A stretch of 36,636 bases of DNA from Candidatus Adlerbacteria bacterium (GTDB lineage Bacteria > Patescibacteriota > Minisyncoccia > Phycocordibacterales > SBAW01). The notes below the pieces were generated by a model. It was not told where the DNA came from and did not search any database. It saw nothing but the letters and a program-made list of their open reading frames with translations. The stretch spans positions 1 through 36,636 of the forward strand of contig JAYTFN010000082.1 in the NCBI GenBank assembly GCA_043734325.1, given 5' to 3'. The translations under genes were made by a program, and so were the position numbers. This document shows positions 6,163 to 17,106 of the stretch, piece by piece; position 1 is the first letter of the stretch, and the number at the start of each line of letters is the position of its first letter.

Positions 6163-8292
6163 TTATTTTTTACGAGTGCGTGGCGGTTTCTTCTTTCCAT
6201 CATTTCCCAAGAGTGTAAAAAGCTCATCGCGAATAATTGCAGCAGTCTCAAAGTCGAGGTCCCGAACAGCATCTGCCATCTGCTGTCTTTTTTCAGCTAG
6301 AAACTTTTTAGGTTCTTTTTTATATAATTCAGAGTCAACAATTAAAAGTGAATTAACCGCCTTACTGTGTTCTGAGCGCATCTCTTCTGTAATATCTTTT
6401 ATACTTTTTTTAATGGTCGTGGGAGTGATACCGTGTTTTTTGTTGTGCGCTACTTGAATGATGCGACGTCGGTTCGTCTCGCCAATGGCTTTATCAAGGG
6501 AATTTGTCATACGATCGGCATAGAGAATAACTCGACCATCGACGTTTCGCGCAGCGCGGCCAATTGTTTGTATGAGTGATGTTTCCGATCGAAGAAATCC
6601 TTCCTTGTCAGCATCTAATATTGCAACAAGCTTCACTTCAGGAAGGTCGAGCCCTTCTCGGAGAAGATTCACCCCGACAAGCACATCATACGTTCCTTTT
6701 CTAAGTTCCGTGAGTGTCGTTATGCGGTCGAGTGTCTGCACATCACTGTGTAGGTACGCGGCTTTTATGTGTCGGTCTTTAAGGTATTCAGCTAAATCTT
6801 CTGCCATTTTTTTAGTGAGAGTCGTAACCAAAATTCGACCGCCGTCGGCAATAACTTTGTCCGCTTCTTCTAAAAAATCTTGCACCTGACCACGAGTCGT
6901 GGCACCAGAAGAAACACTTTCTGCAGCGTCCCCTGGCTGATCTGCAGCGGAAGAAAGCGTTTCTTCTAGTGTCTGCTTTTTCACGCTCCCTCCCGTCACC
7001 GGTCTCACAATAATTTCCGGGTCGACAAGACCGGTCGGACGAATAATTTGTTCGACTACATTCTTTCCACTTTTCTCGCGTTCATACGGCCCTGGTGTGG
7101 CCGAGGTGTATATGACTTGTCCAACTCTGTCTTCGAACTCATGAAATTGCAGCGGACGATTATCAATTGCGGACGGCAAGCGGAATCCGTAGTCTATTAA
7201 ATTTTCTTTGCGCGCCCGATCACCAGAGTACATACCGCCAATTTGCGGAATAGTAACGTGCGATTCGTCGATAATAGTTAAGAAGTCGGGCGTACCCTCT
7301 TTCGTATGCGGAAAATATTCAAGCAGAGAAAAGGGTGGCTGGCCCGGTTTACGTCCGTCGAAGTGGCGAGAATAATTTTCAATTCCGTTGCAGTAGCCGA
7401 CCTCTCGTATAAGAGCTAAGTCATGGTTAGTGCGTCGTTTAAGCCGCTCCGCTTCAAGTAACTTCCCCGCACGCTCAAACCGTGCAAGTTGGTTCTTAAG
7501 TTCAACTTTAATTTCTTCAATAGCTTCCAGTCTTTGAGACTCAGGAGTAACGTAATGCTTTGCAGGGAATAAAAATAGAGACTCCAAACGGTCAGTTTCG
7601 GCCCGTGTTATCGCATCTATAACGCGCACGCGCGCCACAATGTCGCCTTCAAACTCGACTCGGTACAACAACCGCTCACCTGTTGGCATTATCTCTATTG
7701 CGTTGCCCAGAGCGCGAAACTTTCCCGGTTCTAAGTCGGCAGGCGTACGTTCAAAGTAAACAGCGATAAGATCACGTATCAAATCTCCACGTAATTTTTT
7801 TGCACCTACTTTTAATTCAATATGTACCTTACGATACTCTTCGGGGCTTCCAAGCGCATATATGCATGACACAGACGCAACAATTATCACATCCTCACGC
7901 GTTAAAAGTGCTTGCGTTGAAGCGTGACGAAGCCGGTCAATTTCAACGTTTATTTGTGCCTCTTTTTCAATATACGTGTCGCTGTGCGGGATATACGCCT
8001 CCGGTTGATAGTAGTCGTAATACGAAACAAAATAGTGGACCGCATTATTCGGAAAAAATTCGCGATACTCCTGGGCCAATTGCGCCGCCAATGTCTTATT
8101 GTGCGCAATAACTAACGTAGGTTTTCCTACATGGGCTATGACGTTCGCACCGGTAAAAGTCTTACCTGAACCGGTGACACCAAGTAGTGTTTGATGCCGC
8201 TCCCTTCGCTCTATGCCTTGTATAAGCAGCTCAATAGCTTTAGGTTGGTCTCCAGCGGGAGAGTGTTCGGATTGTAAGGTAAGTTTTGCCAT
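6163..8292 (-). CDS. uvrB: Excinuclease ABC subunit B
   Basis: The 709-aa ORF has helicase motifs (GVTGSGKTFT, DESH, TSATPG, QTIGRAARN) and a C-terminal UVR domain (DLDFETAAIIRDELFTL). Confidence 0.95.
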   Translation of the reverse strand: MAKLTLQSEHSPAGDQPKAIELLIQGIERRERHQTLLGVTGSGKTFTGANVIAHVGKPTLVIAHNKTLAAQLAQEYREFFPNNAVHYFVSYYDYYQPEAYIPHSDTYIEKEAQINVEIDRLRHASTQALLTREDVIIVASVSCIYALGSPEEYRKVHIELKVGAKKLRGDLIRDLIAVYFERTPADLEPGKFRALGNAIEIMPTGERLLYRVEFEGDIVARVRVIDAITRAETDRLESLFLFPAKHYVTPESQRLEAIEEIKVELKNQLARFERAGKLLEAERLKRRTNHDLALIREVGYCNGIENYSRHFDGRKPGQPPFSLLEYFPHTKEGTPDFLTIIDESHVTIPQIGGMYSGDRARKENLIDYGFRLPSAIDNRPLQFHEFEDRVGQVIYTSATPGPYEREKSGKNVVEQIIRPTGLVDPEIIVRPVTGGSVKKQTLEETLSSAADQPGDAAESVSSGATTRGQVQDFLEEADKVIADGGRILVTTLTKKMAEDLAEYLKDRHIKAAYLHSDVQTLDRITTLTELRKGTYDVLVGVNLLREGLDLPEVKLVAILDADKEGFLRSETSLIQTIGRAARNVDGRVILYADRMTNSLDKAIGETNRRRIIQVAHNKKHGITPTTIKKSIKDITEEMRSEHSKAVNSLLIVDSELYKKEPKKFLAEKRQQMADAVRDLDFETAAIIRDELFTLLGNDGKKKPPRTRKK

Positions 8293-8380: not shown

Positions 8381-9670
8381 TTATTTGATTTTATATGTCC
8401 CCAAGAACAAATCTCGAAAATTCTCAAAGTTATTGTCCAAAATTGAAAGCCTGATTTTCTCCGTAAGATTCGCTAGGAAAAAAATATTATGTTGCGAAGC
8501 TAGAATCATTCCCAACATTTCTTTCGTCCGAAAAAGATGGTGAACATATGCCTTTGTATACCCCTGTGCACCGTTTGCGGGTAGGCACACCGAACACGTA
8601 CATACGGGGTCCAGTGGTGAAAAATCATCCTTGTACTGGGCGTTTGTAATCAAAATTTTTCCTTCATGCGTATATATGCCACCTGTGCGCCCATTTCGGG
8701 TCGGGAGTACACAGTCAAACGTATCCGCTCCAGCTGCTACACCGATAAAAAGATCCTCCGGTTCTGCGATACCCAGCAAATGACGAGGTTTTTCTTTAGG
8801 TAATTCGCCGTTGACCTTGTCGAGTATTCCCAAAATATCATCCTTACTAAATGACCCGCCAATACCGAAACCATCGAAATCCATACCGGCTATAGTCTTA
8901 GCACTCTGTAAGCGCAAATCTTCGAATCTGCCGCCTTGCACTATGCCATACAGCCCCTGTTCGTTATTTTTAACGCGATTATGTCTATGCGTTTGCAAAC
9001 TGCGCTCTGCCCACCTATGGGTCCGGTCCATTGCTTCTTTTTGGTAATCATAGTCGGATGCCGGTGAGGTACATTCGTCGAAAGCGTAGATAATATCCGC
9101 ACCCAGCTTGTGTTGAATTTCAATTGAACGTTCAGGCGTAAAGCGATGCATTGTGCCGTCATTGTGCGATGTGAAAGTGACCCCATCCTCGTCCACGATA
9201 GCTAACTTTCCATGACTCGTAGCCAAATCTTCGTCGTACAGAATAGGGGCAGGTACAGGATCATCTTTCTCCACTACAGGACGCAACACAGACGCTGCAA
9301 AAGCTGATACTTCCCCTGACCTTGGTGCGAACTTGGAAACCTTCTTGCCATAGCCTTCCCCTAGCGAAAAAACCTGAAAGCCGCCCGAATCGGTCATTGA
9401 CGGCCGATTCCAGTTCATAAATTTGTTCACTCCTCCAGCTTTCTCTACAAGGTCTTCACCAGGAGATAAGTACAGATGGTATGTGTTTGCAATAATGCAC
9501 TGCACACCCAGAGCAGCCAAAATGTCAGGTTGAATTCCTTTTACTGTAGCTTTTGTTGCAACAGATACAAACGCGGGAGTGTTTACACTACCGTGTCGTG
9601 TCTTTAAAACACCCGCTCGTCCGAGGGAATTAGGAATTTCTTTTTCAATACTAAACGAAATAGGACGCAT
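8381..9670 (-). CDS. tgt: tRNA-guanine transglycosylase (queuine tRNA-ribosyltransferase)
   Basis: The 429-aa ORF carries TPAFVSVATKATVKG, TDSGGFQVFSL, YGIVQGG and the Zn site CTCSVC...H. Confidence 0.93.
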   Translation of the reverse strand: MRPISFSIEKEIPNSLGRAGVLKTRHGSVNTPAFVSVATKATVKGIQPDILAALGVQCIIANTYHLYLSPGEDLVEKAGGVNKFMNWNRPSMTDSGGFQVFSLGEGYGKKVSKFAPRSGEVSAFAASVLRPVVEKDDPVPAPILYDEDLATSHGKLAIVDEDGVTFTSHNDGTMHRFTPERSIEIQHKLGADIIYAFDECTSPASDYDYQKEAMDRTHRWAERSLQTHRHNRVKNNEQGLYGIVQGGRFEDLRLQSAKTIAGMDFDGFGIGGSFSKDDILGILDKVNGELPKEKPRHLLGIAEPEDLFIGVAAGADTFDCVLPTRNGRTGGIYTHEGKILITNAQYKDDFSPLDPVCTCSVCLPANGAQGYTKAYVHHLFRTKEMLGMILASQHNIFFLANLTEKIRLSILDNNFENFRDLFLGTYKIK

Positions 9671-11271: not shown

Positions 11272-12039
11272 ATGCGGAAATATTTTAGTATTAGTTTACT
11301 ATTTTTAATACCTTCCTTTATATTCGCCGCTGGTTTCGCCAAGCAAGCTCTTTTCCTTTCTCAGTCAACAGTCTATGAAGGTCAGACTGTTTTTATTTAC
11401 GCAGTAGTGACAGATGATACTCCAACGTATTTTCAGGGTGAATTACGTTTTAGCGATGCAACCGAACTCATAGGCACGGTACCGGTCTCACTTAAACCAG
11501 GGCATGCAGCCACGGTGTCAGTCCCTTGGACACCTAAAGCCGGAGAACATACAATAACCGCCAAGCTTGTAACCGGTGACGATACGCAAACGGAAAATCA
11601 AAAAGCAACTTTTTATGTTAGTAAAGTTCCTTCCCCACCTCAAACATCCGCAATAGATCCACTCGTTACAAAACCAAAGGTCCAAGGCCCGCTCCCAAGC
11701 ACCGTAGATACTTCTACACCGATACTCAATAGTATTGATCGATTTTTTCCCTCCATCGCACAGTCAGTTGCACCTATGTTTTTTTCAGTTGATACATTTC
11801 GAAAAAATTCGGTTAAAAATCTAGACCAAGGTACCCTATGGTCTAAAAAAGAAATTTCTAAAGCTGCAACAGCACCAAGCGGCACTTCCAATACTCTTTG
11901 GATGATACTTTCCACCTTTGTGCTTTATATTTGCGCTTCACTCATATATTCACTTGGAAGCATCAGTATTTTTTATCCGGCAATTACAATTATTATTCTC
12001 TTATTGCTCTGGAAGACACTCAGCTGGATACGCAACTAG
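11272..12039 (+). CDS. Secreted/anchored hypothetical protein with a CARDB/Ig-like N-domain and C-terminal TM segments
   Basis: The ORF is trimmed to the ATG at 11272, giving a signal-like MRKYFSISLLFLIPSFIFAAG. A beta-rich domain (VPVSLKPGHAATVSVPWTPKAGEHTITAKL) is followed by a hydrophobic C-terminus. The function is not recognised. Confidence 0.6.
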   Translation: MRKYFSISLLFLIPSFIFAAGFAKQALFLSQSTVYEGQTVFIYAVVTDDTPTYFQGELRFSDATELIGTVPVSLKPGHAATVSVPWTPKAGEHTITAKLVTGDDTQTENQKATFYVSKVPSPPQTSAIDPLVTKPKVQGPLPSTVDTSTPILNSIDRFFPSIAQSVAPMFFSVDTFRKNSVKNLDQGTLWSKKEISKAATAPSGTSNTLWMILSTFVLYICASLIYSLGSISIFYPAITIIILLLLWKTLSWIRN

Positions 12040-13180: not shown

Positions 13181-13216
13181 CTTTAGCAAGGAGCTTTAGT
13201 GCTACCCTAAGGGAGT
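13181..13216 (+). repeat. 36-bp direct repeat, left copy
   Basis: CTTTAGCAAGGAGCTTTAGTGCTACCCTAAGGGAGT matches 15403-15438 at 31/36 positions in the same orientation. Confidence 0.8.
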
Positions 13217-13632
13217 GCACAAATTCAAAAACATTTGGCCCTCAAACTAGCGTTTGAGCTATGCGGCAATTCAACAGATTCAACTGATTTTCTGAACAAA
13301 CTCCTATAGGTGTGCCCGTATTCTGTTGGAGCGGTTCAATCGGACAATATGGGAAGACTTCATTATATAGAACCGATCCCTTCTACGGGATGATGTAACT
13401 GCCTTCAATGGCCTGCTGGTTGAATGGTTACTCTGGACAACATAGAGAGGCTACTTGAGTCGCTTAGTATACTCTCTCCTTTGCAATACATTGTGAGAAT
13501 AGTATGAGCATCTGAGCGCCAAATGTGGTGGACTTGTACAAACACTTGCTTTTTTCATAAATGTAGTGTTAACATGGCGCTGGATGGTCTTCTGACCTCC
13601 GTTCTTCAACACTCTTTCTAAGGAATTTCTCT

Positions 13633-14388: not shown

Positions 14389-14567
14389 ACTTCAATAGGT
14401 TTTTTAGGTGCGGTAGTCTCTTCTATAGAAATGGAAATAAGTCGGTTATTTATACTCTCCACGTTTCTCTGTTTCTCTAGGAGCCTCTCTTTGCAAATAA
14501 ACATTGCTTCTGTCGAATCGAATCCCACTCCTTTCGCGAAAAATCGAGTATTGTATACTGAAAGCAT

Positions 14568-15275
14568 ATGGTACAAGAAAATATGGAACCGAGCGGCAAG
14601 AGTCCGCCTAATAAAATTGAAGGAGAAAAAACAGTTGGCGCGCCTGAAGTGGCGGCAGAGGTTGCTCCCGAAGTAGCGATAAAAGGAGTGGAAGAAAAAG
14701 AAGATATTTCAGAGCGATTACGCGAAGCAACCGAGTGCCTGAAGATAGTAGCAAAACTTTTGGGGGATTCTTATGTGTTCCTGGACCCCGACACCATAGC
14801 TTGGGAAATACAAACGGTTGATGGTCAGCAAGTACCTGTACTCTCCTTTGACGATATAGACATGTACAGGCTTGTAAACGAACAAAGCCCTGAGACGCAA
14901 GAGGAATGCAACAAGAACCTCAAAAAAATCTTTACTTTATTTACAGAAGAGGAAAAAAAGTTACAAGAGGCACAGAGACCAAACAAAATAGATTGCGGTC
15001 CAAGACTGACAGATATTGAATCTGCATTCGCTTCATTTGCTTCATACTTTGACCTCAAACATTTACACACAATTAAGACGCTGGATGAAGCTTTACAAAG
15101 CTCCGAAAGAGAAGCGGCGAAGCAATTCCTTTTAGCAATATTTTCTCAGATTCAAAAGCTGCAAGTCGAGACGAATATTACACAAGAACAGTTACACACG
15201 GTGAACCGTGAGTACCGAGAGCACTACCATGCAGTTGGGACTATTTCTTTCGGCATAGTGGACCACACCCGATAA
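14568..15275 (+). CDS. Hypothetical acidic protein, no recognisable domain
   Basis: The 235-aa ORF has a disordered N-terminus (APEVAAEVAPEVA) and a helical, Glu/Gln-rich remainder. The start is uncertain, with a second ATG 5 codons downstream. It has no obvious terminator of its own. Confidence 0.5.
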   Translation: MVQENMEPSGKSPPNKIEGEKTVGAPEVAAEVAPEVAIKGVEEKEDISERLREATECLKIVAKLLGDSYVFLDPDTIAWEIQTVDGQQVPVLSFDDIDMYRLVNEQSPETQEECNKNLKKIFTLFTEEEKKLQEAQRPNKIDCGPRLTDIESAFASFASYFDLKHLHTIKTLDEALQSSEREAAKQFLLAIFSQIQKLQVETNITQEQLHTVNREYREHYHAVGTISFGIVDHTR

Positions 15276-15402
15276 AAATTACTGAGGAAAATGGAGATAA
15301 TTCCTATATATACTTTTTATGTTTTCTAATATACTTTCTTAAGTCTTCCTTGCCCGCGTCGGGCACTCTCCACATAGAGGATGGGACACAATTCGTATTC
15401 TT

Positions 15403-15438
15403 CTTTAACAAGTAGCTTTCGAGCTACCCTAAGCGAGT
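15403..15438 (+). repeat. 36-bp direct repeat, right copy
   Basis: CTTTAACAAGTAGCTTTCGAGCTACCCTAAGCGAGT is 31/36 identical to 13181-13216. It contains a TAGCT-TTCG-AGCTA mini-hairpin and lies 14 nt upstream of a consensus -35 box. Confidence 0.8.
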
Positions 15439-15451
15439 AATACCGCTCTGC

Positions 15452-15479
15452 TTGACAAGTTTTCATAACCTGATATAAT
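15452..15479 (+). promoter_or_regulatory. Near-consensus sigma70 promoter
   Basis: TTGACA (15452-15457), a 16-nt spacer, then TATAAT (15474-15479). Confidence 0.65.
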
Positions 15480-15538
15480 ATTATTAGGTGCACCCAGTGA
15501 GGTGCTAACGCGCCGTTCGCGCAAAGGGAGTACTAAAC

Positions 15539-15859
15539 ATGGTAGAAGCAATAAATGAGTTCCTGTTGCAGGATAGAGTTTCAAGTATTATTGTGGTACT
15601 GCTCATTTTTGCATTTTTATGGTGGGGGGCCGAATTATTATTTCGACTGGGAAAAGAATACCGAGTTTCCCTAATCCAGATCATTAGGATCTGGATTAGG
15701 GAATGGGTAGAGTGGGCATGCCTAGCCATGCTTGCAATTGGGCTAGTACTAGCCCTTTTAGCTGGCTGGGTATGGATCCTTCTAGCCACTTTTGCCGTCG
15801 CCTGGCATGCCACGGCAAAAGTAAGCTACAGGTTTAAGTTGCGCTTGATCAAGAATTAA
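15539..15859 (+). CDS. Possible small Trp-rich membrane protein (106 aa); coding status uncertain
   Basis: An AAGGGAG RBS lies about 9 nt upstream of the ATG, and 2-3 hydrophobic segments are predicted. However, the ORF contains three long perfect inverted repeats, and a co-extensive shadow ORF lies on the opposite strand. Confidence 0.45.
   Translation: MVEAINEFLLQDRVSSIIVVLLIFAFLWWGAELLFRLGKEYRVSLIQIIRIWIREWVEWACLAMLAIGLVLALLAGWVWILLATFAVAWHATAKVSYRFKLRLIKN
15667..15703. repeat. Perfect 16-bp inverted repeat with a 5-nt loop
   Basis: TTCCCTAATCCAGATC attag GATCTGGATTAGGGAA. Confidence 0.9.
15740..15755. repeat. Perfect 16-bp palindrome
   Basis: GGGCTAGTACTAGCCC, followed by TTTTAG. Confidence 0.85.
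15789..15821. repeat. Perfect 10-bp inverted repeat enclosing a GGCATGCC palindrome
   Basis: CTTTTGCCGT cgcctggcatgcc ACGGCAAAAG. Confidence 0.85.
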
Positions 15860-15861
15860 AA

Positions 15862-15893
15862 ATGCCCCGGACACATGTTGTGTTCCGGGGCAT
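15862..15893. terminator. Bidirectional terminator hairpin between the 15539 ORF and rarA
   Basis: ATGCCCCGGACAC-atgtt-GTGTTCCGGGGCAT forms a 13-bp stem with one bulge. The minus strand continues with TTTTAATTCTT. Confidence 0.65.
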
Positions 15894-15909
15894 TACTATA
15901 TTCACATTA

Positions 15910-17106
15910 TTACTGCAAATACTTTTTTCCTTTTATTCTATCCGGTAAATAAGATTCGGTGTCATATTTTGTATAATTTTTTCCATAGCCGAGATTTTTC
16001 ATAAGTTTGGTCGGAGCATTCCGGATACTCATAGGGATAGGTAAGTTTCCCATCTGCTTCACATCCTTAAGCGCCTCGAAATACGCATCGTGTGAGTTTC
16101 TGCTTTTCTTGCATTCTGCCAAATACGCGACGCCGTGGGCCAAATTTATTTGACACTCGGGGTATCCTATAATTTCACACGCTCGAAATACTTCGTTCGC
16201 CACAACAAGCGCTGTCGGGACCGCAAGACCAATGTCTTCACTGGCGAAAATTACCATACGCCTAGCTATAAACAACGGGTCTTCGCCTGCGTCTACCATG
16301 CGAGCTAGGTAGTAGAGCGCCGCATCACCTTGGCTTGCACGCATTGATTTTATAAAGGCCGATATGGTGTTGTAGTGCTCTTCCCCTTTTTTATCGTACC
16401 GAAGGTGTTTGCTCTGCACCGTTTCCTTAAGCGTCTCAAGCGATATTTTCCCGTACAGCTTTTGCGTATTTTCTACCACTGTAATTGCTTGTCGAGCATC
16501 CCCTTGCGCCATTTCAATGAGCCAGTCACGAGCATCTTTGGGGATTTTTTTACTTACCTTTTCACCGAGCAGCTGTCGAGTCGCTCGCGCCAGTATATTC
16601 TCCATATCAGGAGGCGTTAGTTCATTAAGGACAAATACCCGACAACGCGACAAAAGTGCAGGAATTACCTCAAACGAAGGGTTCTCGGTCGTAGCGCCTA
16701 TAAGTGTTAACTCTCCCCGTTCTACAAAAGGTAGCAAGAAATCCTGCTGGGCTTTATTAAAGCGATGTATCTCATCTATAAATAGCACTTTAGGCTGCCC
16801 GGGAAATACAAAGGACTGTCCTTTGTACTGCCGAGAACTGTCCTTTGCGTTCATGCCCAAAATGCGTTTTATGTCGTCTTTGCCTGAGTCTACGGCTGAA
16901 AGTTCATAAAAATCGGCTTCTAAAGCGTTAGCGTAAATCCGCGCAAGGGTCGTTTTTCCGCTCCCAGGCGGCCCCCATAACAAAAAGGAAAAAAGATGTT
17001 TGCCTTCTGTGGCCTCGCGCAGAGGTTTTTTCTTCCCAACCAGATGTTCTTGTCCGACAAACTCATCCAGAGACTTCGGCCGAATTTTACTGGCAAGTGG
17101 TTCCAT
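15910..17106 (-). CDS. rarA: Replication-associated recombination protein A (AAA+ ATPase RarA/MgsA)
   Basis: It has Walker A GPPGSGKTT, Walker B LFIDEIHRFNKAQQD, GATTENPSFEV, and the MgsA C-terminal domains (DAALYYLARM, ASEDIGLA, RNAPTKLMK). Confidence 0.92.
   Translation of the reverse strand: MEPLASKIRPKSLDEFVGQEHLVGKKKPLREATEGKHLFSFLLWGPPGSGKTTLARIYANALEADFYELSAVDSGKDDIKRILGMNAKDSSRQYKGQSFVFPGQPKVLFIDEIHRFNKAQQDFLLPFVERGELTLIGATTENPSFEVIPALLSRCRVFVLNELTPPDMENILARATRQLLGEKVSKKIPKDARDWLIEMAQGDARQAITVVENTQKLYGKISLETLKETVQSKHLRYDKKGEEHYNTISAFIKSMRASQGDAALYYLARMVDAGEDPLFIARRMVIFASEDIGLAVPTALVVANEVFRACEIIGYPECQINLAHGVAYLAECKKSRNSHDAYFEALKDVKQMGNLPIPMSIRNAPTKLMKNLGYGKNYTKYDTESYLPDRIKGKKYLQ
16807..16850. 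repeat. Palindromic element copy 2, inside rarA
   Basis: TACAAAGGACTGTCCTTTGTACTGCCGAGAACTGTCCTTTGCGT shares 37/44 identity with 2562-2605. Its first 21 nt form a perfect palindrome. Confidence 0.85.

Follow-up and report, generated by a model that had tools for sequence, protein, structure and literature searches.

A putative transcription unit with three abutting hairpins and a putative tryptophan-rich membrane protein gene between msrA and rarA of a Candidatus Adlerbacteria bacterium

The msrA–rarA slot and its transcription unit

The window analysed here, i.e. the whole stretch of DNA with its 36,636 nucleotides (36.6 kb), belongs to an uncultured Candidatus Adlerbacteria bacterium of the Patescibacteria. 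Its region 15400-15950 comprises a promoter, a GGGAG motif, an open reading frame (ORF) of 106 codons, three internal hairpins (H1, H2 and H3) and a terminator hairpin (Table 1). A preliminary description made from the letters alone had named promoter, ribosome-binding site (RBS), ORFs on both strands and the hairpins, and all these elements were found in place.

Table 1. Positions (window numbering) and properties of the features in and around the unit
Feature	Position	Strand	Properties
36-bp direct repeat, left copy	13181-13216		31/36 identical to right copy, blastn E = 2e-4 within the window
36-bp direct repeat, right copy	15403-15438	+	13 nt upstream of promoter
Sigma-70-type promoter	15452-15479	+	TTGACA-16-TATAAT with TG extension, 12/12 match
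Putative 5' leader	15486-15538	+	about 52 nt, G+C 0.585, two small hairpins
GGGAG Shine-Dalgarno motif	15526-15530	+	8 nt ahead of ATG at 15539
Shadow ORF	15505-15813	-	102 codons, judged not to be a gene
ORF	15539-15859	+	106 codons, all-helical Trp-rich (8 W) membrane protein predicted
H1	15667-15703	+	perfect 16-bp inverted repeat, 5-nt loop, -26.4 kcal/mol, z = -6.6
H2	15704-15787	+	imperfect 84-nt hairpin, 33 pairs (4 G-U), -43.6 kcal/mol
H2 core	15740-15755	+	perfect 16-bp palindrome GGGCTAGTACTAGCCC, then TTTT; centre of H2
H3	15788-15822	+	11 perfect pairs (arms 17 nt at 88%), -16.9 kcal/mol
10-bp palindrome	15844-15853		perfect, CTTGATCAAG, last ORF codons, read from the sequence
Terminator hairpin	15861-15894		11 perfect and 4 inner pairs, common to ORF and convergent rarA

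The promoter, previously called near-consensus, is a complete match and the only sigma-70 site on both strands of the window that reaches at least 11/12. As the strongest promoter of the window it would drive a predicted transcript of about 410 nt. The RBS had been described as good, and the GGGAG motif with its spacing bears this out; since nearly all other genes of the window have no Shine-Dalgarno motif and look leaderless, such a motif may nevertheless weigh little in this organism. The ORF spans the whole unit: it starts 8 nt past GGGAG and its stop codon lies 1 nt short of the terminator hairpin. The stem of the latter has folding energies of -24.9 and -24.5 kcal/mol on the two strands, the T-run (TTTTT) is found on the rarA (minus) side only and the tail of the plus strand is U-poor (ATTACTATATT). 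Therefore, this is primarily the terminator of rarA, which would be shared bidirectionally; the hairpin described as terminator of the unit exists at its site but the T5 tract serves the rarA strand. An equivalent hairpin is present at the corresponding position in the loci of the two nearest relatives, here called L001 and L002.

In both relatives the gene order is sig–rarA–(475-654 bp)–msrA–vkor, and the corresponding msrA–rarA slot of the window amounts to about 611 nt once a 2.2-kb segment with p237 and p235 is discounted. This segment is bracketed by the pair of 36-bp direct repeats, the right copy of which forms the edge of the ancestral slot. No homologues of p237 were found, so it is an orphan, and p235 has one relative (75% identity), from the samples of the ENA assemblies ERZ28573522 and ERZ27315162, on an 801-nt contig that ends without downstream context; scanning of JGI metagenome contigs with p235 gave no match. 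The slots of L001 and L002 contain unrelated small ORFs for transmembrane peptides behind TTGACA-17-TATAAT promoters and GGAG-type motifs. They converge on the terminator of rarA, in the same orientation and layout as in the window, and their transcripts are mildly structured (z = -2.7 to -3.5 versus -8.5 in the window). Neither of the two peptides has sequence similarity to the 106-aa product, and homology with the L002 peptide, considered separately, was rejected. On the basis of these sequence comparisons, the msrA–rarA slot that the cassette occupies is hyper-variable. The sequence of the region itself is identical in 4/4 runs, and neither population variants nor empty-site joints at the locus were found in these four runs.

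The block of three hairpins

As claimed in the preliminary description, three of the four hairpins lie inside the ORF. It treated them as separate structures, and their positions are right, but H1, H2 and H3 adjoin without any spacer and form one block of 156 nt or 52 codons that accounts for half of the coding sequence. Their individual lengths are 37, 84 and 35 nt and only the sum is divisible by three, which has a 1-in-3 chance. With 0.513 the G+C content of the block exceeds that of the remaining ORF (0.383 and 0.351). H1 encodes SLIQIIRIWIRE, an amphipathic helix, and H2, in which CTAGCC (Leu-Ala) is repeated three times in frame, accounts for the larger part of the second hydrophobic segment of the predicted protein. 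The arms of H3 flank GGCATGCC / CGCCTGGCATGCC and this hairpin encodes TFAVAWHATAKV. The 16-bp palindrome followed by TTTT was correctly described as perfect but it is only the centre of the 84-nt imperfect hairpin H2. A working terminator at this site (15740-15759) was rejected, given four T only and a position in the middle of the ORF and within a larger hairpin. The hairpin centres GGGCTAGTACTAGCCC and GGCATGCC are perfect palindromes with zero loop that add no RNA stability.

That these hairpins exceed chance, as had been estimated roughly before, is confirmed by 100 Markov shuffles of the window, none of which contained a perfect stem of more than 12 bp when loops of up to 12 nt were allowed. 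The fold of the whole transcript has z = -8.5, and by G+C-corrected folding energy the region holds ranks 1, 2, 3 and 6 among 730 windows of 150 nt. With 80 related loci included, its rank is 7th among 12,016 windows, and several of those that outrank it overlap tRNA genes. H2 folds with -43.6 kcal/mol on the plus strand versus -29.6 kcal/mol on the minus strand, a gap of 14 kcal/mol that comes from the four G-U pairs of the plus strand. At the 5' end the RBS motif GGGAG is paired in the minimum-energy fold and unpaired in the centroid fold; the former includes a weak 5'-3' pairing.

Two features speak against an origin of the hairpins as mere DNA-level inserts, as proposed below: the sixteen perfect stem pairs imply that the stem either arose very recently or is under selection to pair, and the four G-U pairs of H2 could reflect selection at the RNA level. 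Outside this region, no 4-bp palindromes of the window are rarer than GATC and CTAG, but here each is found four times versus about 0.5 expected. An enrichment of 6-bp palindromes is not significant, with 90/725 sliding windows reaching the same count as this region. The inverted match of 16 nt and 81% between 15403-15418 and 15823-15838 was judged to be chance.

In the source metagenomes the hairpins are single-copy. With a threshold of at least 80%, no copies of any part of 15655-15830 occur on other contigs of the two metagenome assemblies X1 and X2; the identical test with the uvrC palindrome as control detected at least 7 copies on contigs of equal depth, in pieces down to 21 nt. A search for each palindrome elsewhere had been proposed in the preliminary description, and on these two assemblies it yielded no second copy. 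Copies of H1, H2 and H3 are also absent from the window and from 80 related loci. The three hairpins are mutually unrelated and also differ from the known repeat of this genome, a multi-copy REP-like palindrome (TACAAAGGAC..GTCCTTTGTA), and no RAYT (Y1 transposase) gene was found in the neighbourhood of the window. H1 (37 nt, -26.4 kcal/mol) and H3 (35 nt, -16.9 kcal/mol) have the size of 20-40 nt and the stability expected from REP-like hairpins, and a recognisable repeat family, as in Rickettsia palindromic elements (RPEs), was not found for H1-H3. Membership in the palindrome family of uvrC and rarA was rejected, as the hairpins have no sequence similarity to it and are single-copy. Of the idea that further in-frame palindromic elements like those of uvrC and rarA are present, the in-frame palindromic material is favoured but not the relation to this family, nor any multi-copy repeat in the source metagenomes.

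Coding potential of the unit

Several properties of the ORF resemble those of genes. In shuffles that kept both composition and hairpin architecture, a plus-strand ORF of at least 100 codons was obtained in 0.8% of cases only. Among the six frames the frame of the 106-codon ORF has the top codon score, on par with the other membrane proteins of the window, and its codon positions are composed like those of a gene (0.32 G at position 1, 0.46 T at position 2). The codon score is +0.11 ahead of the hairpin block and -0.08 inside it. The shadow ORF on the minus strand has an atypical composition (0.46 A at position 1, 0.36 C at position 2) and a lower codon score; stop codons are rare in it because its codon position 1 complements the A-poor position 2 of the plus frame. 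It does have the 102 codons reported for it, but their cause is this A-poor second codon position and not, as had been suggested, palindromic DNA in general, and we judge that it is not a gene.

The predicted product of 106 aa has hydrophobic segments at about aa 14-38 and aa 55-91, with two hydropathy peaks above 2.0, and a basic C-terminal tail. AlphaFold2, run with the single sequence, proposes two long helices with a pLDDT of 86.6, and a high pLDDT for a single hydrophobic sequence is weak evidence. In a Foldseek comparison of this model with the PDB no match was obtained at E <= 0.001. Searches with the ORF in Pfam, NCBIfam, PHROG and PADLOC returned nothing significant, and among 5.8 billion and among 1.84 billion proteins the only relative is the protein itself. 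From the ORF statistics, the best frame and the two hydrophobic segments, we favour the reading that the plus strand would code for a helical membrane protein rich in Trp and that its mRNA would be highly structured, which was also the first of the explanations offered in the preliminary description.

The rival that has to be taken most seriously, although we consider it unlikely, is a non-coding, structured RNA about 400 nt long that extends from the strong promoter to the common terminator, its hairpins being functional (e.g., in protein binding or processing) and the ORF incidental. The region is the most strongly folded one of the window, the four G-U pairs give H2 an additional stability of 14 kcal/mol on the plus strand, the 106-aa “protein” is an absolute orphan and a structured leader of 52 nt is atypical where genes are mostly leaderless and without Shine-Dalgarno motif. 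However, a plus strand rich in G+T by itself favours G-U pairs, and the palindromic centres with zero loop are unlike products of RNA selection. An ORF that is rare among matched shuffles and spans the distance from RBS motif to terminator is difficult to reconcile with this reading, as are the gene-like codon positions and a hydrophobic transmembrane pattern that is specific to the ORF frame. Furthermore, the positional analogues in L001 and L002, with their mild folding, are plainly small protein genes. With gathering thresholds no Rfam match was found in the window, and with E up to 10 only chance hairpin matches to models of eukaryotic miRNAs and snoRNAs appeared.

Origin of the unit and comparison with known systems

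The explanation that we tentatively put first, judged from nucleotide sequence, is that of a young small-gene cassette with an orphan Trp-rich membrane protein that has been enlarged in frame by palindromic DNA. The cassette would be specific for the lineage and consist of promoter, 52-nt leader, 106-codon ORF and the terminator shared with convergent rarA. In its protein an amphipathic helix would follow the first transmembrane helix and precede a hydrophobic stretch of 31 residues and a basic tail. The 156-nt block probably represents palindromic material that arose at the DNA level, be it by local inverted duplication, by template switching during replication or by insertion of a low-copy hairpin element. 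Deletion of the block in silico keeps the frame and leaves a peptide of 54 aa with a single transmembrane segment and a basic tail. The original gene may thus have encoded a single-pass peptide of about 54 codons and may have absorbed in frame the block that now encodes the second half of the protein. The extreme structure of the mRNA would then be mainly a by-product that may slow translation or stabilise the mRNA. An ancestral “empty” allele was found neither among 5.8 billion or 1.84 billion proteins nor in JGI metagenomes or the runs examined.

Similar inserts are known from other genes of this lineage. In tgt of L001 and L002 there is a hyper-variable in-frame insert with large hairpins (z = -6.4 and -6.7) and differing sequences, and the tgt of the window has a shorter and unstructured version of it. 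The tgt of L002 and another contig of this genome also carry the core of the uvrB insert, but with other complementary arms. The lineage demonstrably tolerates palindromic material in frame in uvrC, rarA, uvrB and tgt. A broader hypothesis, possible but rather doubtful, is that some DNA-level process makes hairpin inserts with locus-specific arms that are repeatedly absorbed in frame, and that here it converted a 54-aa into a 106-aa multi-helix protein. Candidates for this process would be template switching or a hairpin-inserting element, and the absorbed inserts would form loops in the products of tgt, uvrB, uvrC and rarA, and an amphipathic helix and a transmembrane hairpin in the protein described here. 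According to published studies on template switching, a single event can yield perfect hairpins (10.1101/2021.04.15.439925; PMC8604942).

Next in rank stands the assumption that the unit is non-functional debris, i.e. palindromic junk in a variable slot that stems from decayed hairpin elements or replication errors, with promoter and ORF being fortuitous or relics. The orphan status would fit, as would the fast turnover of the slot between relatives, the susceptibility of the lineage to hairpin insertions and the excess of GATC and CTAG (4 each versus about 0.5 expected), which suggests young or foreign DNA. We nevertheless regard debris as quite unlikely, for it requires the coincidence of a unique 12/12 promoter, a correctly spaced GGGAG, an ORF of 0.8% frequency and a stop codon abutting the terminator. 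Moreover, the genomes of Patescibacteria are compact, the four runs do not differ in this sequence and the perfect stems are without decay.

That the unit encodes a small membrane toxin like those of type I systems, with a folded mRNA that limits translation and antisense RNA or read-through from rarA as antitoxin, is very unlikely. The predicted product is indeed hydrophobic and helical, the mRNA is heavily folded and has a weak 5'-3' pairing in its minimum-energy structure, and antisense read-through could come from convergent rarA. However, the region 15400-15950 contains no minus-strand promoter of the sigma-70 or extended -10 type, the product has about twice the typical size (106 aa versus <60 aa; for the definition see PMC6563280, PMC8594479), no toxin or defence family matches it, the RBS motif is not robustly sequestered and a 12/12 promoter points to high expression and not to repression. 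The likening of the unit to a type I toxin in the preliminary description is not upheld. Least probable of all, and hardly credible, is a functional DNA-level site with cruciforms or hairpins for recombination, nicking or replication (e.g., an attachment site or the end of the 2.2-kb segment): perfect palindromes with zero loop are characteristic of binding sites for protein dimers and 13 nt separate the promoter from the end of the 36-bp direct repeat that brackets the accessory segment, but the hairpins lie at least 230 nt past this repeat and within the ORF, the neighbourhood has no gene for a recombinase, relaxase or Rep, the four runs contain no empty-site or joint variants, the cumulative GC skew has no turning point here and phage, plasmid and viral collections hold no similar site. 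This earlier suggestion has no positive support.

If the explanation by a cassette enlarged in frame is true, new coding sequence, membrane-spanning segments included, can come from hairpin elements or from mutation that generates palindromes, even in a tiny and otherwise streamlined genome, and the gene joins a wider habit of the lineage to carry hyper-variable, hairpin-encoded inserts in essential genes. The unit has a single promoter, a single ORF and three hairpins that can be removed, which makes it a compact test case for two questions: whether an organism with mostly leaderless genes tolerates or exploits such extreme mRNA structure within a gene, and whether the orphan small ORFs of Patescibacteria are real proteins. 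Should the unit be non-coding instead, its RNA would be new and strongly expressed in Patescibacteria, a phylum for which, to our knowledge, almost no small RNAs have been characterised.

Among known systems, RPEs and intragenic REP/MITE sequences (PMC10969869) are comparable in that hairpin DNA inserted in frame into an ORF adds residues. As with such “codogenic” palindromic repeats, the host lineage has several cases of this kind in conserved genes. RPEs and REPs are, however, multi-copy elements of conserved sequence whereas the source metagenomes contain a single copy each of H1, H2 and H3, and the hairpins described here form half of an orphan protein and not a surface loop of a conserved enzyme. 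The REP/REPIN-RAYT system (PMC3116915) shares the short perfect hairpins, and a REP-like palindrome is present in this genome as well, but H1-H3 have no sequence similarity to this family and no second copy. Hairpins produced by template switching (10.1101/2021.04.15.439925 / PMC8794818; PMC8604942) are similar in being perfect close inverted repeats, some of them palindromic at the centre, in coding sequence, and one event is enough to create a stem or to make it perfect. Their diagnosis needs an ancestral or outgroup sequence, in place of which the derived arm would be a reverse-complement copy of neighbouring sequence. Three abutting hairpins with 156 nt would, in contrast, take several such events. 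The mRNAs of type I toxins like hok, dinQ and tisB (PMC6563280, PMC8594479, PMC5066626) also encode hydrophobic membrane peptides and are highly folded, but in the unit described here the structure resides mostly within the coding region and not around the RBS motif, and an antisense promoter is missing. From the slot genes of L001 and L002 the unit differs by the lack of sequence similarity and by its far stronger mRNA structure (z = -8.5). In bacteria, small membrane proteins occur in variable intergenic slots, and it is these two slot genes that share with the unit its position, orientation, promoter type, RBS motif and common terminator.

Architecture and structure of the unit

The promoter, the ribosome-binding motif, both ORFs and all hairpins that the preliminary description had claimed are present in the sequence (see table), and the succession of promoter, motif, ORF and terminator is directly established. 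Motif scoring of both strands of the window returns this promoter as the only site reaching at least 11/12. The ORF starts immediately downstream of the ribosome-binding motif, and its stop lies 1 nt ahead of the terminator hairpin; inside it H1, H2 and H3 abut without any spacer. Of the 4-bp palindromes, GATC and CTAG are the least frequent in the window (each about 0.5 expected per 408 nt), and the segment 15486-15893 contains GATC four times, CTAG four times and CATG five times.

Features of the unit between msrA and rarA
Feature	Position	Strand	Description
Promoter	15452-15479	+	TTGACA-16-TATAAT with TG extension; score 12/12
Leader		+	52 nt; GGGAG 8 nt 5' of the ATG at 15539
106-codon ORF	15539-15859	+	
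Shadow ORF		opposite to the 106-codon ORF	102 codons
H1	15667-15703		perfect 16-bp stem, 5-nt loop
H2	15704-15787		84-nt imperfect hairpin, 33 pairs; centre is the perfect palindrome GGGCTAGTACTAGCCC at 15740-15755
H3	15788-15822		11 perfect pairs around GGCATGCC
Terminator hairpin	15861-15894		

The architecture and the hairpins are not due to chance. No Markov-shuffled version of the window, out of 100, contained a perfect stem of more than 12 bp. The fold of the whole transcript has a folding-energy z-score (z) of -8.5, and by G+C-corrected folding energy the unit occupies ranks 1, 2, 3 and 6 among 730 windows 150 nt in length. With the addition of 80 related loci it holds rank 7 of 12,016 windows, several of the better-ranked ones overlapping tRNA genes. 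Independent Logan assemblies of four sequencing runs give the same sequence, so the locus is not an assembly artefact.

The unit is atypical for its own genome: its promoter has both the -35 and the -10 element, its leader measures 52 nt and it carries GGGAG. A Shine-Dalgarno motif is absent at nearly every gene of the window, and most genes look leaderless because an extended -10 box (TGnTAnnnT) is located 6-8 nt before the ATG of many of them. Exceptions are the small genes in the msrA-rarA interval (the slot) of the window and of its two nearest relatives (loci L001 and L002), which have leaders and GGAG motifs.

Coding potential and the msrA-rarA slot

The 106-codon ORF is an absolute orphan. 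Both a search of 5.8 billion clustered proteins and an exhaustive HMMER search of 1.84 billion representatives returned only the protein itself, Pfam, NCBIfam, PHROG and PADLOC gave no family match, and a Foldseek search with the protein model gave no match either. Sequence variants of the locus were not found in the four DNA runs, and the locus itself was found in no RNA run. Internal evidence, including the fit of the ORF between ribosome-binding motif and terminator, favours coding on the + strand. Only 0.8% of 20,000 shuffles that kept composition and hairpin architecture had a + strand ORF of at least 100 codons. By codon log-likelihood the ORF frame is the best of six (-0.02, the next frame reaching -0.22) and lies close to the membrane proteins p134 and VKOR of the window. 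Codon positions are gene-like (a G fraction of 0.32 at position 1 and a T fraction of 0.46 at position 2), the hydropathy profile has two strong hydrophobic segments (about aa 14-38 and 55-91) followed by a basic tail, and AlphaFold2 run on the single sequence, which is weak evidence, predicts two long helices (pLDDT 86.6). The shadow ORF, whose own composition is un-gene-like, was rejected as a gene; it is a by-product of the + frame, as its codon position 1 is the complement of the A-poor position 2 of that frame and stops are therefore rare.

The neighbouring RarA shows at most 79% identity to proteins of uncultured Patescibacteria labelled Paceibacteria, Kaiserbacteria or ‘Saccharibacteria’. 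L001 and L002 are syntenic with the window (sigma factor, rarA, 475-654 bp, msrA, VKOR), and the same interval in the window comprises 2.8 kb with three genes, namely p237 (G+C-rich, with a weak PEP-CTERM-like tail), p235 and the 106-codon ORF. A 36-bp direct repeat (13181-13216 and 15403-15438, 31/36 matches) brackets p237 and p235, its right end lying 13 nt before the promoter. Without this 2.2-kb segment the slot measures about 611 nt, like those of the relatives, so the 106-codon ORF is the resident of the ancestral slot; an empty-site variant of the segment was not found in the four runs. Contigs of runs X2 and X4 end at 13494-13529, within a 556-nt ORF-free spacer through which those of X1 and X3 continue; low coverage or polymorphism may be the reason. 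On two ENA contigs (L083, L084) a sister lineage encodes p235 (window 14527-15300) at 75% amino acid identity, which means that p235 is a real gene kept in a narrow clade; its upstream 45 nt are identical, its C-terminus and 3' flank divergent.

The variability of the slot is directly established. L001 and L002 carry different small ORFs there, in the same orientation as the 106-codon ORF and without sequence similarity to it, preceded by a TTGACA-17-TATAAT promoter and a GGAG-type motif and ending in a hairpin common with rarA. L002 encodes a Trp-rich single-transmembrane peptide, L001 a transmembrane peptide and a small soluble protein, and these transcripts are only mildly structured (z = -2.7 to -3.5). 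In L001 (3042-3284 and 2638-3042, minus strand) the small transmembrane-peptide ORF continues across a terminator-like hairpin and a TTGACA-17-TATAAT promoter that lie inside it, and its stop overlaps the start of the next ORF (TAATG), a hint of coupling or attenuation.

Copy number and origin of the hairpin block

H1, H2 and H3 together comprise 156 nt, exactly 52 codons of the ORF. Their proposed membership in the REP-like palindrome family of this genome (TACAAAGGAC..GTCCTTTGTA, in uvrC and rarA) is refuted. In the contigs of two source metagenomes (runs X1 and X2) the uvrC element finds many further copies on other contigs at the same depth, with pieces down to 21 nt, whereas 15655-15830 treated by the same procedure finds only its own locus. 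At least six of the further copies of the uvrC palindrome (2562-2604) are clustered in some 1.1 kb of a single 7.4-kb contig at the same depth, and one more on another contig. Neither arms nor cores of the hairpins recur elsewhere in the window, in 913 kb of related loci or in viral, phage and plasmid collections.

A DNA-level origin of the hairpins, which would have been inserted into an older, shorter ORF, is suggested by several features. The block, single-copy in the source metagenomes and of a length that preserves the frame, is shifted in G+C (0.513 compared to 0.383 and 0.351 in the flanking ORF parts), and the codon score is positive ahead of it and lower within it. In-frame deletion leaves MVEAINEFLLQDRVSSIIVVLLIFAFLWWGAELLFRLGKEYRVSYRFKLRLIKN, a predicted single-pass peptide with a basic tail that resembles the small peptides encoded in the slots of L001 and L002. 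Several hairpin centres are palindromic throughout, which selection on RNA would not need. Within H2, CTAGCC (Leu-Ala) occurs three times in frame, which suggests iterated local copying.

Tolerance of such inserts in the lineage is directly established. Between GKKVSKF and LYDEDLATSHG, tgt of L001 (6570-6715) and L002 (11546-11696) has an in-frame insert that is hyper-variable; large hairpins encode it (z = -6.4 and -6.7), and its sequence is entirely different in the two relatives. The insert of the window tgt (9241-9328) is shorter and unstructured (z = +0.4). The loop core GCTGCAGNTCAGCNAGGGGACGC of the L002 tgt hairpin (11582-11604) is also found in the uvrB insert of the window (6919-6955; core 6926-6948) and, by metagenome contig comparison, on a further contig of this genome. 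The conserved core measures 23-37 nt and the arms differ at each of the three places but are always self-complementary, which suggests a hairpin element with locus-specific arms, possibly inverted copies of the target. From the tgt and uvrB cases it follows that in-frame inserts encoded by hairpins are common in this lineage, some of them having arms specific to their locus. The block of the 106-codon ORF conforms to this habit but differs in being single-copy and hydrophobic.

Proposed mechanism and relation to known systems

We tentatively propose, at somewhat less than even confidence, an expressed membrane-protein gene. The unit would be transcribed and then translated, the second half of the protein being supplied by palindromic DNA that may have been made by template switching, a route to perfect hairpins documented in 10.1101/2021.04.15.439925 and PMC8604942, or by low-copy hairpin elements. 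The extreme mRNA structure would largely be a by-product, although it may modulate mRNA stability or elongation.

A structured non-coding RNA is unlikely. As a counter-sign to DNA-level origin, four G-U pairs make H2 more stable by 14 kcal/mol in the + strand RNA; the richness of this strand in G and T by itself favours such pairs. Non-functional debris is quite unlikely. The type I toxin style formerly considered for the structured mRNA and its membrane peptide is not borne out and very improbable, as an antisense promoter of either type is absent, the product has 106 aa and no toxin family matches. A functional DNA-level site is the least probable reading, with no recombination genes nearby, no joints and no skew signal.

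The unit is an odd but well-delimited object in an understudied phylum, and the likely explanation, the membrane-protein gene extended by palindromic DNA, extends a known theme. The nearest known phenomenon is that of in-frame palindromic repeats, e.g., the Rickettsia palindromic elements, intragenic REPs or MITEs as outlined in PMC10969869. Like Rickettsia palindromic elements and intragenic REPs, the unit is hairpin DNA read as protein, here by predicted translation. Unlike them its hairpins are single-copy in the source metagenomes; multi-copy occurrence is the defining trait of those families, which sets the hairpins of the unit outside them.
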